A DNA stretch of 64,000 bases from an uncultured archaeon (GTDB lineage Archaea; Aenigmatarchaeota; Aenigmatarchaeia; CG10238-14; SCSR01). The stretch covers positions 6,328-70,327 of the forward strand of contig CAYYVK010000001.1 in assembly GCA_964475145.1 (NCBI GenBank), written 5' to 3'. Positions 6,846 to 57,748 of this stretch are shown here, piece by piece (the stretch's first letter is position 1; every line of letters starts with the position of its first letter). The notes under the pieces were generated by a model, which had not been told where the DNA came from, ran no database searches, and was given only the letters and a program-made list of their open reading frames with translations. Both the position numbers and the translations under genes were made by a program.

Positions 6846-7181
6846 ATGGCAGAAGTGTGTCTTAAGTGTGGAGCTCCTGCTTCTCAAGGTATTTGCTCTA
6901 AGTGTGGATTGCCAGCAGAAATTTGTGTTTGTGAAGCTTTAGAAAAAGAAGAGAAGAAAATAAAAGTTTTTATCGAAAAGAGAAAGTTTAATAAGCCTAT
7001 AACAATAATTGAAGGAGTGAGAAGTAGAGGAAAAGAAATTACTTCTCAATTGAAGCAGAAGCTTGCATGCGGTGGAACCTACAAAAACGGGAAAATAGAG
7101 TTGCAAGGTGATCATAGAAATAGGTTAAAAGACTTGCTTAAAAGTTTTGGATTTGATGAAAGTCAAATAGAAATAATATAA
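6846..7181 (+). CDS. sui1: translation initiation factor aSUI1 (eIF1 homologue)
   Basis: N-terminal CxxC...CxxC...CVC zinc motif and SUI1 core (GGTYKNGKIELQGDHRNRLKDLL); archaeal L29-SUI1-Rpp29-S17 order. Confidence 0.8.
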   Translation: MAEVCLKCGAPASQGICSKCGLPAEICVCEALEKEEKKIKVFIEKRKFNKPITIIEGVRSRGKEITSQLKQKLACGGTYKNGKIELQGDHRNRLKDLLKSFGFDESQIEII

Positions 7182-7200
7182 AGTCTTTTTCTTTATAATT

Positions 7201-7479
7201 ATGCCCATTACACCAAAGAACTTAGTCAGACATGAACTGATAGGGTTAAAAGTAAAAGTTGTTAAATCTACTGAAAAAACTCAAAAAGGTTTAACAGGAG
7301 TAGTGATAGACGAAACTTATAACACGCTTAAGATTGAAACAAAAAATGGTGAAAAGACTGTGATAAAAAGCAATTGCGTTTTCATCTTTACCCTGCCAGA
7401 CAAAACAAAAGTACAAGTAGATGGTAAGGTTTTAGTAGGTAGACCAGAAAACAGGATAAAAAAGAAATTCTTATACTAG
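7201..7479 (+). CDS. rnp1: RNase P protein component 1 (Rpp29/Pop4)
   Basis: 92 aa; [14 protein letters not shown]...[18 protein letters not shown] Sm-like Rpp29 fold; conserved position before S17. Confidence 0.7.
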
Positions 7480-18766: not shown

Positions 18767-19348
18767 TCAATATTGTACCCCTTTTGTAGTTGGTATATCT
18801 TTCGGATGTTTAACATCTATTATTTCATTCACAAAATCTGACCTCTCTATAATCTCTTTAGGAGCATACCTTCCTGTTAGGACTAAGTCTGTTCTCTTAG
18901 GAAGTTTTTCTATAAGCTCAAGAAGCTCCTCAACTTTCAGAAGCTTTAGATGCAAAGCCAAGCATACTTCGTCTAGAACCAGTAAATGAGGTTTTTCTTT
19001 CAGCATAATTTTCTTTGCAAACTCTAATCCTCTTCTTGCAAACTCTCTGTCTAATTCTTCCACATTTCTTACTTTAAACGTGGCTTTCCCGTACTTTATC
19101 TTTCCTGTCTTATCATCTATTTTTAACCAACCAGGTCTACCAAACTGGTATATCTTGTAGTAAGGGTAAAGCATTTTTCTTATCTTGTATTCGCCTGTGT
19201 TTTTCCACCATTTGAGAAATTGAATTATAACAACTTTATGTTTGTGCCCAACAGAACGAAGAGCCAGCCCTAAAGCATTTGTAGTTTTTCCTGCGCCAGT
19301 TCCAGTGTATAAGTATACATAACCCATATATCTTATTTTAATCATCAT
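18767..19348 (-). CDS. cobO: cob(I)alamin adenosyltransferase (CobA/CobO/BtuR family)
   Basis: GYVYLYTGTGAGKTTNALGLALRSVGHKHKVVIIQFLK P-loop signature. Confidence 0.75.
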   Translation of the reverse strand: MMIKIRYMGYVYLYTGTGAGKTTNALGLALRSVGHKHKVVIIQFLKWWKNTGEYKIRKMLYPYYKIYQFGRPGWLKIDDKTGKIKYGKATFKVRNVEELDREFARRGLEFAKKIMLKEKPHLLVLDEVCLALHLKLLKVEELLELIEKLPKRTDLVLTGRYAPKEIIERSDFVNEIIDVKHPKDIPTTKGVQY

Positions 19349-19356
19349 AAATTAAT

Positions 19357-19656
19357 TTGGTGGTCAAGATTCAGCTGTTGTTGACGATACTTGCACTAAT
19401 AGATATAGCTGCTGGTTCTGCTTTAGTTTTCCGTCTATCCATCTTTTCATCCTACATCGGCTATGCAATCCTTGTAAAAGGTGGGTGGACTGTTTTAAGC
19501 ACGTTCAAAAGTGACTTTCTATTTTTGCTGATAGGTGTTCTAGACTGCATTGCTGCACTGATTTTACTTTTACCTAGTGCTTTAACTTCTCTTTCCTGGC
19601 TTGTAGGAATTTTAATTATGGTAAAAGGAGCTTGGTCTTTTCTATCTTCTCTCTAA
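19357..19656 (+). CDS. small membrane protein
   Basis: 99 aa, three hydrophobic helices; between cobO and RNR. Confidence 0.3.
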   Translation: MVVKIQLLLTILALIDIAAGSALVFRLSIFSSYIGYAILVKGGWTVLSTFKSDFLFLLIGVLDCIAALILLLPSALTSLSWLVGILIMVKGAWSFLSSL

Positions 19657-22600
19657 CTTAGTTCGCATACTTCACAAACGGATATACCCTCTCCTATTGG
19701 CTTCAGAACTTCCTGTTGTCTACTGCCTTGTCTGTAAACAGTAACACCTAAACATCCAAGGTCGTATGCAAGCATAAAAGCCTTTTCCACGTCATGAGGC
19801 GTAGCATCGTGTGGAAAGTTTATCGTTTTGCTTATACCATTGTCTACGAACTCTTGGAAGGCTGCTTGAATTCTTACATGCCATTCTGGTGAAATGTCAT
19901 GAGCTGTAACGAAGATTCTTCTTATTCTCTCCGGTATTTCTTTTATGTGCTGAATGCTTGTAGAACTTAAAACTTCTTTCAAAATTTTCTCGTCGTAAAA
20001 TCCTTCTTCTATGGCAATTCTCTCAAAGTAAGGATTAACAACAATCAAGTTTGTTCCTAAACTCTCAGCCACATTTCTTATATAACCTATAGCAAAAAGT
20101 GGTTCTATGCCTTGAGAACAACCTGCTATCTCACTTATGCTTCCAGTAGGTGCTATAGTAGTTACTGTAGCATTTCTCATTGCTTCATAACCAAGCTCAT
20201 CCCATCTGCTACCTTTAAAGTTTGGAAAGCTACCTTTTTCCTTACCAAGCTCTACAGAAGTTTTCCTTGCTTCTTCTGTTATAAATTTCATCAATTCTCT
20301 TGCAGTCTTGAGAGCTTCTTCAGAATTGTAAGGAATTCTCAACAAAATTAACATGTCAGCAAATCCCATTACACCCAAACCTATTTTCCTGTTTCCCTTT
20401 GTCATTTCCTCTATCTGCTTAATCGGATACTTATTGGCATCAATAACATTGTCTAAGAAACGAACTGCTAGTTTTACTGTTTTTCTAAGCTTTTCCCAAT
20501 CTATCTCGTACTTTCCTTCTACTTCTTTAACCATCTTAGAAAGGTTTATAGAGCCTAGATTGCAAGACTCGTAAGGCAAAAGAGGTTGTTCTGAGCAAGG
20601 GTTAGTAGACTCTATTTCACCCAACTTTGGTGTTGTGTTGCAATGCCTGTTTATCCTATCTATAAAAACTACACCAGGTTCACCATTCTTCCAAGCCATT
20701 GTAACTATTAAGTTCCAGATAGCTCTTGCTTTCAAGGTTTTAACTACTGCTTTGTTTCTAGGATTGATTAGCTCAAAGTCCTTGTCATTTTTTACAGCAT
20801 CCATGAATTTGTCCGTTATTGCCACAGAAATGTTAAAGTTTCTCAAAAATCCTTCTTGCTCTTTGCAAACTATAAAGTCTAATATATCTGGATGGTCCAC
20901 TCGCAAAATTCCCATGTTGGCTCCACGACGTTTTCCCCCTTGTTTTATCTCTTCTGTTGCTGCATTGAAAACTTTCATGAAGCTTATAGGTCCTGAAGCT
21001 GTGCCAGTAGTCGATTTTACTATATCACCTTTTGGCCTTAGACGAGAAAAGCTGAATCCGGTGTTGTGAACAAACACTAGGCCGTTGACACCAGCAAGAT
21101 AATTCTGAAAATTCTCTACTGTTAAATCATAAAAGATTTTATCTTCTTTCGTTCTTGAAACCGATTTTACAACCTCTAAAGATTCTACAAGTCTCAACAA
21201 CTTTTCAAGTTGGCGTAGGTTTAAAACATTACCAACTTTTCTTAAAAACTTTACTAAAGTAGCCTTAGCAACAACACCTCTCTTATGCCACTGTCCGAGT
21301 GAAATTTTTTCACCATCAACAACAGCAATTGTCTGATTACCGTTGGTCTTGAATTCAACATCAGACCCAGATAGTAACTTTTTAAATGATTCGAAATTTA
21401 ACGGTAGTCCAAAACTTCCACCCTTATGATTTTCTAACAAAGTTTTAAGTTTCTCCCTTTTGTCGTTTCGCTGTAAGTTCATGCCTATGAGTTCATAAAA
21501 CCTTAATAGCGAAGAATATTCCTCGACTTGCAAAACATAATCAACACCATCTTTTCTTTTTTTCTTTCTCATTCTTGCCTTTATTCCTATAGAGTTTAGA
21601 AAGTATGTAATCGCTTCTATCTGTTCTTCATTAATCATGGAGAGCTCAACACTAGGTTTGGAGCTAACATGCCCTTCTGCATCAAAAAGTCCTGTAATGA
21701 AAGAAAGTGTAGCATTTTTATTTTTATATACAGTTTCTCTTAGTTTAAGGTAGTACGAGATTATTTCTTTGTTCTTTATATCAATGTAGAAAATGTTCCT
21801 ATCTTTTTGGATCGAGTATCTTCTTCTAAACTTCTTCTCCAAATGTTTATTTATTTTTTCAAGCGTTTCTTTACAGTTGTCATAAATCCTCAATCTATCT
21901 GTTTCATAGCCAGCTGCTCTATTTCTATACCTTCCGATACTACCATCACCTACTATGAAGCCAGTCGTCCAATAATCGAAGTCAAAACTGGTCTTAACTT
22001 TTGGCGGAATAGCCCCTAAAATCATATCTCCTTTTTTAATCTCATCAGCTCTTTTTTGTACAACTTCAAAATTCGGTGTCATTACAAGAAAGGGATGCCA
22101 AGCAGAAGTCAAAATCTTAGTACCTTTGTTAGTTTTTATTTCGTGTTTTTCTTCGCCATTGCTTAAAACATACTTCCAAATAAATTGGACTTTACCCCTT
22201 GCTAACTCTTTTGTTTTTGGATCAAAAGAGAAAACGAATATTTGCTTGTCTCTCACGTCAATTCCGTGTCTATTAAACTCTCCATCATAAAATTCTTTGT
22301 GCCTATTTTTCTCGTAGAACCTACTCATACTTAAAACATGAAACTCTCCATCATTTTCAAATACAAGTTTAGCTCTTCCGTCTACACATCCTCCACCTGA
22401 TTTTTGAACGATTGCCATAACTTTAAGAGCATCAAAAATACTTTCTATGCTATCTTCAACAGGTATAACAAAACATGCAGATAAGTTAAGACCATCAGGA
22501 ACTCCTGCGTTCATAAGCGTTGGTGAATTTGGCAGAAACTCTAGATTTGTCATCATCCTGTAAAACTCCTCTTCTAGGCTTTTAATGTATTCCTCGTCTT

Positions 22601-23072
22601 TTCCGTACATCCTTTCGACTTCTGCTATAGCTTTGGCAACTCTCCTGAACATTTGCCCGGTAGACTCTATTATCTTGCCGTTAACGTCTTTTCTCAGATA
22701 CCTAGCTGCCAGAATTAATAAAGCATTTGTTGGTAGCTTCAACTCGTCCTCTACACCCAACATTGCTTTTATCCTTCTTGCCTCTGCCCTTTTTTGTCTG
22801 TACAAAATATATGCTTTAGCAGTCTTGTAATGTCCATTTTCTACAAGAACTTTTTCTACAAGATCCTGAACTTGTTCAACAGTAGGAATATCTCCAGGCT
22901 TCAGTTGTTTTTCCAGCAACTCTACAACTTGTTTAGAAAGCTTTTCTGCTATTGTCCTATCCTTTCCACCTACAGCCTGGGCAGCCTTAAAAATTGCGTT
23001 AGTAATTTTTTCAGGCTCGAAGTCGACGATTCTTCCGTCTCTTTTTTTGATTTTAGAAATTGTCATCAACAT
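19653..23072 (-). CDS. nrdJ: ribonucleoside-diphosphate reductase, class II (adenosylcobalamin-dependent), intein-containing precursor (1139 aa; ~697-aa mature extein)
   Basis: N-terminal ATP-cone; thiyl-radical loop TNPCSEQ; KSGGG/TGFSFSRLRP motif split by intein; C-terminal Cys pair CEVCE. Confidence 0.9.
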   Translation of the reverse strand: MLMTISKIKKRDGRIVDFEPEKITNAIFKAAQAVGGKDRTIAEKLSKQVVELLEKQLKPGDIPTVEQVQDLVEKVLVENGHYKTAKAYILYRQKRAEARRIKAMLGVEDELKLPTNALLILAARYLRKDVNGKIIESTGQMFRRVAKAIAEVERMYGKDEEYIKSLEEEFYRMMTNLEFLPNSPTLMNAGVPDGLNLSACFVIPVEDSIESIFDALKVMAIVQKSGGGCVDGRAKLVFENDGEFHVLSMSRFYEKNRHKEFYDGEFNRHGIDVRDKQIFVFSFDPKTKELARGKVQFIWKYVLSNGEEKHEIKTNKGTKILTSAWHPFLVMTPNFEVVQKRADEIKKGDMILGAIPPKVKTSFDFDYWTTGFIVGDGSIGRYRNRAAGYETDRLRIYDNCKETLEKINKHLEKKFRRRYSIQKDRNIFYIDIKNKEIISYYLKLRETVYKNKNATLSFITGLFDAEGHVSSKPSVELSMINEEQIEAITYFLNSIGIKARMRKKKRKDGVDYVLQVEEYSSLLRFYELIGMNLQRNDKREKLKTLLENHKGGSFGLPLNFESFKKLLSGSDVEFKTNGNQTIAVVDGEKISLGQWHKRGVVAKATLVKFLRKVGNVLNLRQLEKLLRLVESLEVVKSVSRTKEDKIFYDLTVENFQNYLAGVNGLVFVHNTGFSFSRLRPKGDIVKSTTGTASGPISFMKVFNAATEEIKQGGKRRGANMGILRVDHPDILDFIVCKEQEGFLRNFNISVAITDKFMDAVKNDKDFELINPRNKAVVKTLKARAIWNLIVTMAWKNGEPGVVFIDRINRHCNTTPKLGEIESTNPCSEQPLLPYESCNLGSINLSKMVKEVEGKYEIDWEKLRKTVKLAVRFLDNVIDANKYPIKQIEEMTKGNRKIGLGVMGFADMLILLRIPYNSEEALKTARELMKFITEEARKTSVELGKEKGSFPNFKGSRWDELGYEAMRNATVTTIAPTGSISEIAGCSQGIEPLFAIGYIRNVAESLGTNLIVVNPYFERIAIEEGFYDEKILKEVLSSTSIQHIKEIPERIRRIFVTAHDISPEWHVRIQAAFQEFVDNGISKTINFPHDATPHDVEKAFMLAYDLGCLGVTVYRQGSRQQEVLKPIGEGISVCEVCELS
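21063..22388 (-). mobile_element. intein (442 aa) with LAGLIDADG homing-endonuclease domain inside nrdJ
   Basis: Starts with Cys directly after KSGGG, ends VHN before Thr of TGFSFS; block B TSAWHPF, LAGLIDADG blocks GFIVGDGSIG and GLFDAEGHV. Confidence 0.85.
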
Positions 23073-34313: not shown

Positions 34314-34410
34314 GGGCGAGTAGCTTAGCCTGGTGGAGCACAAGTGCTTAATCGCCTTATAAGGCAGCTAAGCTAGCGAGGGGTCGAGGGTTCAAATCCC
34401 TCCTCGCCCA
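34314..34410 (+). tRNA. tRNA (97 nt) with one or more non-canonical insertions/introns; isotype unresolved
   Basis: Perfect acceptor GGGCGAG/CTCGCCC, T-arm GAGGG-TTCAAAT-CCCTC, D-arm GCTT-AGCCTGGTG-GAGC, discriminator A. Anticodon region holds perfect helix GCTTA/TAAGC enclosing 18 nt with nested hairpin GCCT-TATA-AGGC; about 23 nt exceed a 74-nt tRNA. Confidence 0.7.
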
Positions 34411-34442
34411 CTTTTATAGATATTTAAAAGGAATTTTATCTT

Positions 34443-57646: not shown

Positions 57647-57748
57647 TGGGGTCGACGGGATTCGAACCCGCACACCGAGGTTTCCTCATCAAATCAGAGC
57701 TCCATTCAGCTGGAGCCTCGTGTCACTACCAGGTTAGACGACGACCCC
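57647..57748 (-). tRNA. tRNA-Trp (CCA) with 28-nt intron at canonical 37/38 position
   Basis: GGGGTCG-TC-GTCT-AACCTGGTAG-TGAC-A-CGAGG-CTCCAG[CTGAATGGAGCTCTGATTTGATGAGGAA]A-CCTCG-GTGT-GCGGG-TTCGAAT-CCCGT-CGACCCC-A; intron UGGAG pairs with anticodon loop. Confidence 0.8.

Follow-up and report, generated by a model that had tools for sequence, protein, structure and literature searches.

A predicted PI-PfuI-type intein with a LAGLIDADG homing endonuclease domain in the nrdJ gene of an uncultured archaeon

The ribonucleotide reductase (RNR) gene nrdJ of an uncultured archaeon is interrupted in frame by a sequence that is very probably a canonical PI-PfuI-type intein of class 1, i.e. an element that splices itself out of the host protein and encodes a homing endonuclease that spreads the nrdJ insertion. 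The gene lies in the window, the 64,000-nt stretch of DNA analysed here. The insert has the anatomy of an intein and is homologous to PI-PfuI, and it carries population-genetic signatures of recent horizontal movement together with purifying selection on the endonuclease.

Splicing and DNA cleavage in the window organism are predicted to proceed as follows. The nrdJ mRNA would be translated into a 1139-aa precursor, from which the HINT domain (Cys1, Ser95/His98, Asp421, His441-Asn442 and Thr+1) would remove 442 residues and ligate Gly228 to Thr. Ligation would remake the GGG-TG motif and yield an active 697-aa B12-dependent RNR. The freed intein would act as a double-motif LAGLIDADG homing endonuclease, with Asp148 and Glu238 as catalytic residues and an accessory Stirrup DNA-binding domain. 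It would cut intein-less nrdJ at the GGG/ACC junction (here and below, a slash within a motif marks the insertion point), and with the intein-bearing copy as repair template the element would spread. The homing-cycle framework is that of PMC7765530.

The host gene and its neighbour

The nrdJ precursor is encoded by a single 1139-aa open reading frame in the ORF list (19653..23072, minus strand). Pfam finds an ATP-cone at the N-terminus and the Ribonuc_red_lgN and Ribonuc_red_lgC domains, with one intein inside the product. The NCBIfam model TIGR02504 (NrdJ_Z) gives 723 bits, above its cutoff of 399.95. In a PDB sequence comparison the spliced protein matches T. maritima NrdJ (1xje) with E=3e-135, and its redox-active cysteine, which lies 28 residues before the GGG-TG motif, aligns to Tm Cys134. 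By these matches the host is assigned to the class II (B12-dependent) RNRs, and both this identity and the ORF length agree with the initial annotation of the region. It should be pointed out that public gene calls start nrdJ two codons later (MTISK..., 1137 aa).

The N-extein (aa 1-228; 22389..23072, minus strand) ends in ...AIVQKSGGG, and the C-extein (469 aa plus stop; 19653..21062, minus strand) starts with TGFSFSRLRP. Direct computation bears out the earlier claim that 442 residues split this motif and that their excision restores a 697-aa enzyme: without the insert KSGGG/TGFSFSRLRP is rejoined, and the protein reads continuously through VQKSGGGTGFSFSRLRP. Homologues that have no intein (687-707 aa) show the motif unbroken. 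In annotation, nrdJ should be described as intein-containing, with 697 aa in the mature product, and not as an RNR of unusual length.

An ATP:cob(I)alamin adenosyltransferase gene of the CobA/BtuR family (18767..19348, minus strand; PF02572 CobA_CobO_BtuR, E=1e-44) is found on the same strand approximately 300 nt downstream of nrdJ, which confirms the neighbour that had been noted initially. A small ORF on the opposite strand (19357..19656) lies between the two. The true cobA start is likely to be at 19327, which gives a protein of 186 aa and matches the calls in relatives. The nrdJ-cobA linkage is also present in six related loci (L003-L008).

Anatomy of the intein

The intein is 442 aa in length (1326 bp; 21063..22388, minus strand) and is supported by Pfam, NCBIfam and alignment with the PI-PfuI crystal-structure sequence 1dq3. 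It comprises residues 229-670 of the ORF, with borders GGG/C at aa 228/229 and HN/T at aa 670/671, and runs from Cys1 to His441-Asn442 before Thr+1. These are exactly the borders first proposed. The 1dq3 match extends over the full insert (query 1-442 against chain 1-454, E=3e-172).

The Pfam Intein_splicing profile scores 104 bits on the insert (cutoff 35.8). The N-terminal splicing (HINT) region, intein aa 1-130 (21999..22388, minus strand), matches TIGR01445 intein_Nterm with 31.4 bits (cutoff 24.5) and aligns with PI-PfuI residues 1 to approximately 131. The C-terminal splicing region, aa 403-442 (21063..21182, minus strand), matches TIGR01443 intein_Cterm with 21.8 bits (cutoff 15.6). All three profiles are above cutoff and supply the HMM block annotation that had been suggested as a check.

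Residue invariance was judged on seven intein alleles that are 60-92% identical. Block A is represented by Cys1, which is invariant. Block B, TSAWHPF, occupies aa 94-100 (22089..22109, minus strand), with T94, S95 and H98 invariant. The 'T' position of the TxxH signature is held by Ser95 and not by Thr94 (S-A-W-H), and PI-PfuI likewise has S-P-W-H. Block F (FYDLTVE, with Asp421) and block G (GLVFVHN) are also in place; F419-V424, H441 and N442 are invariant, and the Thr+1 of the C-extein is Thr in all allelic copies. The intein is probably competent for splicing, because the splicing residues are present and nrdJ is apparently an essential single-copy RNR. All sequence-level criteria point to a class 1 intein whose homing endonuclease is of the double-motif LAGLIDADG type.

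Endonuclease and Stirrup domains

In double-motif LAGLIDADG endonucleases some 90-100 aa separate the two motifs, and a catalytic acidic residue closes each of them. The endonuclease domain of the window intein spans aa 131-322 (21423..21998, minus strand) and matches PF09062, the PI-PfuI Endonuc_subdom (106 bits, E=1.7e-30), as well as PF14528 LAGLIDADG_3 (50.3 bits, cutoff 22.5, E=2.9e-13). Motif 1, WTTGFIVGDGSI, is at aa 140-151 (21936..21971, minus strand) and includes Asp148; motif 2, LSFITGLFDAEGHV, is at aa 228-241 (21666..21707, minus strand) and includes Glu238. Both predicted catalytic residues are invariant in the seven alleles. A coordinate check located block B and the two dodecapeptide motifs that had been read originally. 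D148, E238 and both motifs are intact in the window copy, in line with the initial description of the domain as apparently intact. In one close relative (P0006/L006) motif 1 has lost 1 aa (GFI-GDGSIG), a hint that some copies have started to decay.

The Stirrup, an extra DNA-binding domain that characterises PI-PfuI, is at aa 324-402 (21183..21419, minus strand). It matches PF09061 with 92.9 bits (cutoff 26.6) over profile positions 1-79 of 79, and the region was also aligned to 1dq3. AlphaFold2, given a 5-row alignment, produced a model of low quality (mean pLDDT 55, pTM 0.33) that is too weak for fold comparison, a step which the sequence match with 1dq3 makes superfluous.

Distribution among relatives

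Database relatives were gathered by protein search with the spliced extein; a word-index search with the intein alone returned one odd fragment only (P0001) and missed even identical entries. The precursor protein is found with 0-3 aa differences in independent NCBI, JGI and ENA assemblies (P0002-P0005). Within the population to which the window belongs, all five alleles sampled contain the intein, so that no empty target site is visible there. Among more distant relatives, P0014 shares 80% identity with the window extein, and its 90%-identity cluster holds HDN90837.1 (Candidatus Aenigmarchaeota). P0018 and P0023 also come from Candidatus Aenigmarchaeota, and P0023 is 73% identical to the window extein. 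The probable assignment of the window host to the Aenigmarchaeota is based on the source names of these cluster relatives. Other relatives have different inteins at other sites.

A separate RNR intein is found in relatives, not in the window, at KQGG/C...HN/(K/R)RRGA (e.g. L005, 3001..7749). It has no +1 nucleophile (Cys, Ser or Thr), and it may be more interesting than the window intein. Within the window, Pfam scans of six long ORFs (513-691 aa) and one 496-aa ORF revealed no further intein.

Mobility and selection

A sister lineage has both filled and empty sites. The flanks of the intein-plus L003 and the intein-less L004 are 96.5-96.9% identical in DNA, and their exteins share all but 6 of 694 aa; the sole gap coincides exactly with the intein borders. 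The fused window junction reads ATCGTTCAAAAATCAGGTGGAGGA/ACCGGATTCAGCTTTTCTCGTCTA and the empty site that occurs naturally in L004 reads CTTGTTCAGAAGGCAGGTGGCGGA/ACCGGATTTTCATTTTCTAAGATA, and both are candidate substrates of the endonuclease; the L003-like version carries GGC GGG GGG.

Comparison of the window with L005/L006, from a related species, gives an intein dS of 0.16-0.17, against background values of 0.66 for the extein, 0.5 for S2, 0.65 for L15e, 0.56 for CarbK and 0.8 for CobA. These estimates, like the omega values below, come from a simple Nei-Gojobori script applied to sequence pairs, not from a phylogenetic model. Intein dS is about 4-fold below that of the host genes (Fisher p~1e-16), and transfer therefore probably took place after the species split, which indicates recent movement between lineages. 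The intein is also 62-67% identical to Thermococcus/Thermococcales alleles, compared with 46-48% for the extein. Low intein dS could also have arisen by ordinary homologous recombination between alleles that both carried the intein, not by endonuclease-driven homing. The extein flanks show no clearly visible co-conversion tract when the window is compared with L005/L006. A search of IMG/VR contigs for a viral vector gave only remote LAGLIDADG matches (26-35%), and composition is uninformative, as the differences are too small (GC 0.339 in the intein vs 0.382 in the extein; GC3 0.30 vs 0.315).

Omega is 0.24-0.28 for the intein and 0.25-0.32 for its endonuclease domain (binomial test of neutrality, p=0.004 and 0.0007), so that the domain appears to be under purifying selection (omega ~0.3). 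Polymorphism among relatives, low intein dS, an endonuclease omega below 1 and the higher identity of the intein than of the host enzyme to Thermococcales give indirect support to the proposal that the window intein is still mobile. A stronger version, in which it is a currently active homing element among thermophilic Aenigmarchaeota (DPANN) and has passed between phyla, either to or from Thermococcales, is tentative and on balance doubtful. If it holds, DNA exchange between these ultra-small archaea and the organisms associated with them might be traced through the tree of intein alleles.

Alternative readings

The insert might have been a lineage-specific RNR insertion domain, or the product of chimeric assembly or a frameshift. 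No point in favour of this was found, and its likelihood is negligible. The insert has no RNR-domain similarity and resembles PI-PfuI over its full length; the ORF is single and uninterrupted, and the same architecture recurs in independent NCBI, JGI and ENA assemblies. The Pfam and 1dq3 matches and these assemblies refute both an RNR domain and an assembly artefact. A more serious question is whether the intein splices but has an inactive endonuclease in the window lineage, the element being fixed and its homing cycle having reached the decay phase; splicing would then be retained because nrdJ is essential. The presence of the intein in every sampled allele of the window's population (P0002-P0005) and the motif 1 deletion in P0006 are compatible with this, as is the omega of the endonuclease and Stirrup regions (0.25-0.49), 6-12 times the 0.04 of the extein. 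Yet the window copy keeps D148, E238 and both motifs, endonuclease-domain omega is significantly below 1, the 4-fold reduction of intein dS relative to the genomic background implies transfer after the species split, and gain/loss polymorphism among relatives is clean. Endonuclease decay in the window lineage is judged unlikely.

A role for the intein as a conditional post-translational switch of RNR (e.g. in response to redox state or temperature), and not as a purely selfish element, is considered highly improbable. The idea draws on its position in a catalytic-site motif close behind the redox cysteine and on the Cys1 nucleophile. An environment-sensitive archaeal intein, that of P. horikoshii RadA, is a reported precedent (PMC4513877), and inteins cluster in replication-related proteins, with 43 counted in archaeal RNRs, a pattern for which a functional meaning has been argued (PMC4760082). 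However, nothing in the sequence requires a switch, and the near-identical host L004 does well without the intein. The sporadic distribution, with different inteins at other sites in relatives, fits selfish mobility. A splicing, PI-PfuI-type homing intein remains the preferred reading. With its relatives, the window intein forms a compact natural data set on the homing cycle in uncultured thermophilic archaea, comprising filled and empty sites at ~97% DNA identity, intein dS well below that of the host, and one copy whose LAGLIDADG motif is damaged. On the practical side, it is another candidate thermostable splicing domain and rare-cutting endonuclease.

Comparison with known inteins

PI-SceI (the yeast VMA1 intein) and PI-PkoII (2cw7) are textbook intein-encoded LAGLIDADG homing endonucleases. 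They have the same general architecture as the window intein and presumably the same splice-then-home mechanism, but they occupy other host genes and sites, have no PF09061 Stirrup, and are only remotely similar to it (E=3.5e-9 for PI-PkoII). Closer in position are the inteins of three archaeal class II RNRs (P0123, P0124 and P0126), which share the GGG/TGFSFS site, the Cys1...HN/T borders, a similar length and a LAGLIDADG endonuclease. Their identity to the window intein is 30-34%, and they represent a different sub-lineage of the allele. InBase site letters, e.g. rir1-b, are used in PMC4071816, and none is assigned here to the window site.

The closest known system is PI-PfuI, the Pfu RIR1-1 intein of the P. 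furiosus RNR (PDB 1DQ3). The two inteins share the host enzyme, ribonucleotide reductase, and the combination of HINT, LAGLIDADG endonuclease with PI-PfuI subdomain, and Stirrup; they are collinear throughout (442 vs 454 aa, 58-60% identity). D148 and E238 of the window intein align with D149 and E250 of PI-PfuI, for which the structure paper (2000) reportedly describes a catalytic role. Thermococcus sp. JdFR-02 (L001) has an intein at the same GGG/TG site as the window intein (MGGG/TGLNFS), and this Thermococcus intein is 71% identical to PI-PfuI. Unlike the host of PI-PfuI, the window host is probably a member of the Aenigmarchaeota (DPANN), and identity between its RNR and the Thermococcales enzyme is only 46-48%. 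The aenigmarchaeal alleles differ from those of Thermococcales by a 9-aa deletion before motif 2 and a 2-aa deletion after motif 1. Of the two inteins, PI-PfuI is the one with measured activity.

By homology the window intein is placed in the PI-PfuI allele family, which has long been known and crystallised, and its novelty is therefore low. A near relative is already labelled "intein-containing" by NCBI, and RNR is known to be among the most intein-rich archaeal proteins. Current understanding is unchanged. What the window intein adds to the PI-PfuI family is a member from a probable DPANN lineage.

The nrdJ gene and its host

The nrdJ precursor is an uninterrupted open reading frame of 1139 aa (19653..23072, minus strand). 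Translation places within it a 442-aa insert (21063..22388, minus strand) that splits a conserved RNR motif, exactly where the initial annotation had put it. At the N-side border VQKSGGG (aa 222–228) is followed by Cys229, and at the C-side border VFVHN (aa 666–670) precedes TGFSFSRLRP; sub-feature coordinates were verified by re-translation. Deletion of the 442 residues yields a protein with continuous KSGGGTGFSFSRLRP, whose length of 697 aa agrees with the ~697-aa enzyme anticipated earlier. The same protein, with 0–3 substitutions and an N-terminus called two codons shorter, recurs in independent assemblies of NCBI, JGI and ENA (P0002–P0005), and therefore a sequencing or assembly artefact is ruled out as the origin of the insert. 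The first ATG (23066..23072) gives MLMTISK... (1139 aa) and all public calls use the second Met (MTISK..., 1137 aa), but the choice leaves the intein unaffected.

The host protein is a class II RNR, based on its TIGR02504 NrdJ_Z score (723 bits vs a cutoff of 400) and the match of the spliced form to T. maritima NrdJ (1xje; E=3e-135). The insertion point lies between the equivalents of Gly162 and Val163 of the T. maritima enzyme, 28 residues past that of the redox-active Cys134. Downstream on the same strand is a CobA/BtuR-family corrinoid adenosyltransferase gene (18767..19348, minus strand; PF02572, E=1e-44), the cob(I)alamin adenosyltransferase that had been named as a neighbour; relatives keep the nrdJ–cobA pair. 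Between the two genes, a hydrophobic 99-aa reading frame on the opposite strand (19357..19656, plus strand) overlaps the nrdJ stop by 4 nt and has no Pfam match. An opposite-strand gene of 90–98 aa is called at this position in the related loci L005, L006, L007 and L008, and thus the frame may encode a real small membrane protein.

Archaeal markers in the window are ribosomal protein L15e, a thermosome, a class I LysRS and intron-containing tRNAs. Two tRNA genes found with Rfam are longer than standard (~97–102 nt) and are most likely of this intron-containing archaeal type; ARAGORN could not type one (34314..34411, plus strand) and missed the other (57647..57748, minus strand). Among named proteins, those closest to the extein, i.e. 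the RNR without its intein, come from Candidatus Aenigmarchaeota MAGs: P0018, P0023 (73% identity) and HDN90837.1. The last clusters at 90% identity with P0014, which shares 80% identity with the window extein. The host is probably a member of the Aenigmarchaeota (DPANN), as assigned from database labels of relatives, not phylogeny.

Splicing and endonuclease domains

Four Pfam domains in the insert score well above their gathering cutoffs: Intein_splicing (104 vs 35.8 bits), PI-PfuI Endonuc_subdom (106 vs 24.4), LAGLIDADG_3 (50 vs 22.5) and Stirrup (93 vs 26.6). NCBIfam models of intein N- and C-terminal splicing regions match as well. Seven alleles were aligned: those of the window, three Aenigmarchaeota-like relatives, an uncultured archaeon, Thermococcus sp. 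JdFR-02, and PI-PfuI, the Pyrococcus furiosus RNR intein. Cys1, Thr94/Ser95/His98 (block B), Asp421 (block F), His441 and Asn442 are invariant in all seven, and Thr at +1 is found in all copies; the Cys start, block B, His-Asn end and following Thr read initially are borne out. Asp148 and Glu238, at the ends of LAGLIDADG motifs 1 and 2, are likewise invariant (7/7), in keeping with the intact appearance ascribed to the endonuclease domain.

An intein-only word search had a single match, P0001, a 282-aa Thermococcales-type RNR/intein fragment from a Logan assembly. Where it departs from PI-PfuI, nearly all changes are of C-to-T type (T>M/I, S/P>L/F, H>Y; e.g. TSPWHPFF to MLLWYLFF). Such a pattern points to a library that was treated with bisulfite or strongly deaminated, not to real divergence.

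Mobility

All alleles sampled from the population of the window itself have the intein; relatives have both filled and empty alleles. Locus L003 encodes P0014, with an intein 72% identical to that of the window, and L004 encodes P0012, an intein-less protein of 694 aa. The loci are collinear at 96.5–96.9% DNA identity, their exteins differ at six of 694 residues, and their sole gap is the 1326-bp intein. The three Gly codons 5′ of the insertion point read GGC GGG GGG in the intein-plus locus (L003:1671-1677) and GGT GGC GGA in the intein-less one (L004:1860-1866). These synonymous differences, at −7, −4 and −1, lie together where cleavage and recognition are presumed to occur, in genes that are otherwise ~97% identical, and could represent target-site variation affecting cleavage, or a short conversion tract.

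Loci L005 and L006, from a syntenic sister species, have nrdJ genes of ~88% nucleotide identity to that of the window. Synonymous divergence from the window (dS, Nei–Gojobori) is 0.66 for the extein, 0.48–0.53 for S2, 0.63–0.67 for L15e, 0.55–0.58 for a carbohydrate-kinase gene and 0.77–0.84 for cobA, but 0.16–0.17 for the intein (40 of 268 synonymous sites differ, vs 197 of 447 in the extein; Fisher p~1e-16). The intein copies thus share an ancestor about four times more recent than that of the surrounding genomes, and intein-bearing DNA passed between the two lineages after their split. Another possible source of the low intein dS is plain recombination between two filled alleles; the extein flanks show no clear co-conversion tract. 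No viral carrier for the intein was found.

Since the transfer, omega has been 0.24–0.28 for the intein, 0.25–0.32 for its endonuclease domain and 0.04 for the extein. Values are significantly below neutrality for the endonuclease domain (binomial p=0.004 and 0.0007) and for the whole intein (~1e-8). Given these comparative data, the reading of the intein as still mobile is more than a guess. The closest sister-species copy, P0006 (L006:2537-3859), has GFI-GDGSIG for GFIVGDGSIG, a 1-aa in-frame deletion in the first LAGLIDADG helix that may be a first sign of endonuclease decay in a single copy; L005, of the same species, retains the full motif.

Older movement is also indicated. Compared with the Thermococcus allele, the window intein shows 62–64% identity and that of L003 67%; for the corresponding exteins the figure is only 46–48%. 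Among the Aenigmarchaeota-like alleles, intein divergence outpaces that of the extein (identities of 72 vs 80% and 63 vs 73%), yet it is the intein that is closer to Thermococcales, which implies transfer between these phyla. Deletions common to the Aenigmarchaeal alleles suggest that the intein entered once and then spread.

Proposed splicing and homing

The anatomy, homology and evolutionary signatures are established at the sequence level; from these we infer the following steps. The nrdJ precursor would be translated and undergo an N-S acyl shift at Cys1, attack of the thioester by Thr+1, cyclization of Asn442 and an O-N shift, giving a native Gly-Thr bond, as in the general mechanism (PMC7765530). 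The freed 442-aa protein would then use Asp148 and Glu238 to cleave intein-less nrdJ at GGG|ACC, and repair would copy the filled allele into the cut gene, as in the homing cycle (PMC7765530).

Inteins at other sites in related RNRs

Close relatives carry other inteins at other sites, and the RNR of this clade has been invaded at no fewer than four. A second family, at KQGG|xRRGANMG, is recognized by the Pfam models Intein_splicing and LAGLIDADG_3 (e.g. L005:5134-6468, P0122 aa 712–1156). Its sequences begin with Cys1, have TYNH as block B and YTMDIE as block F, and end in VHN. This family is absent from the window, where the site reads IKQGGKRRGANMG uninterrupted. It is found in L005 and not in L006, at ~98% DNA identity, so that gain or loss is recent. 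In 13 of 13 complete sequences (P0007, P0122, P0125, P0210 and L009–L017), with mutual identity down to 36%, Lys or Arg follows the terminal Asn; in P0198, this site is occupied by a more distant intein, with Ser at +1. A literature search found no description of such an intein without a +1 nucleophile, and none is known to us. Canonical trans-esterification is impossible without Cys, Ser or Thr at +1 (PMC7765530). The element would either splice by an undescribed route or not be excised, and this family is possibly of more interest than the window intein.

At TNP|CGEQPLL, at least three different inteins occur in relatives, ending in Asp (...YSLD|CGEQ; P0009, P0010, P0011, P0015, P0019, P0038), Gln (...VVHQ|CGEQ; P0021, P0037) or Asn, the last in a 153-aa mini-intein (...ISRN|CGEE; L001:~6900-7360, Thermococcus sp. 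JdFR-02). C-terminal Asp and Gln are known atypical variants. P0008 has a further intein at FLPN|SPTLMNAG.

Comparison with known inteins

RNR is a classic intein hot-spot. Forty-three archaeal RNR inteins have been counted (PMC4760082), and the inference of gene flow from inteins is established practice (PMC4071816). A cluster relative, RLI77361.1, is already labelled by NCBI 'intein-containing adenosylcobalamin-dependent ribonucleoside-diphosphate reductase'. Other archaeal RNRs have more diverged inteins at the same site (30–34% identity). The window intein aligns with the crystallized PI-PfuI (1dq3) over its whole length (query 1–442, chain 1–454; E=3e-172 in a PDB search) at 58–60% identity. 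D149 and E250 of PI-PfuI, the equivalents of Asp148 and Glu238, are reportedly catalytic, according to the structure paper of 2000. By its alignment, the window intein belongs to the PI-PfuI (Pfu RIR1-1) allele family, and its hosts are a lineage new to that family and distant.
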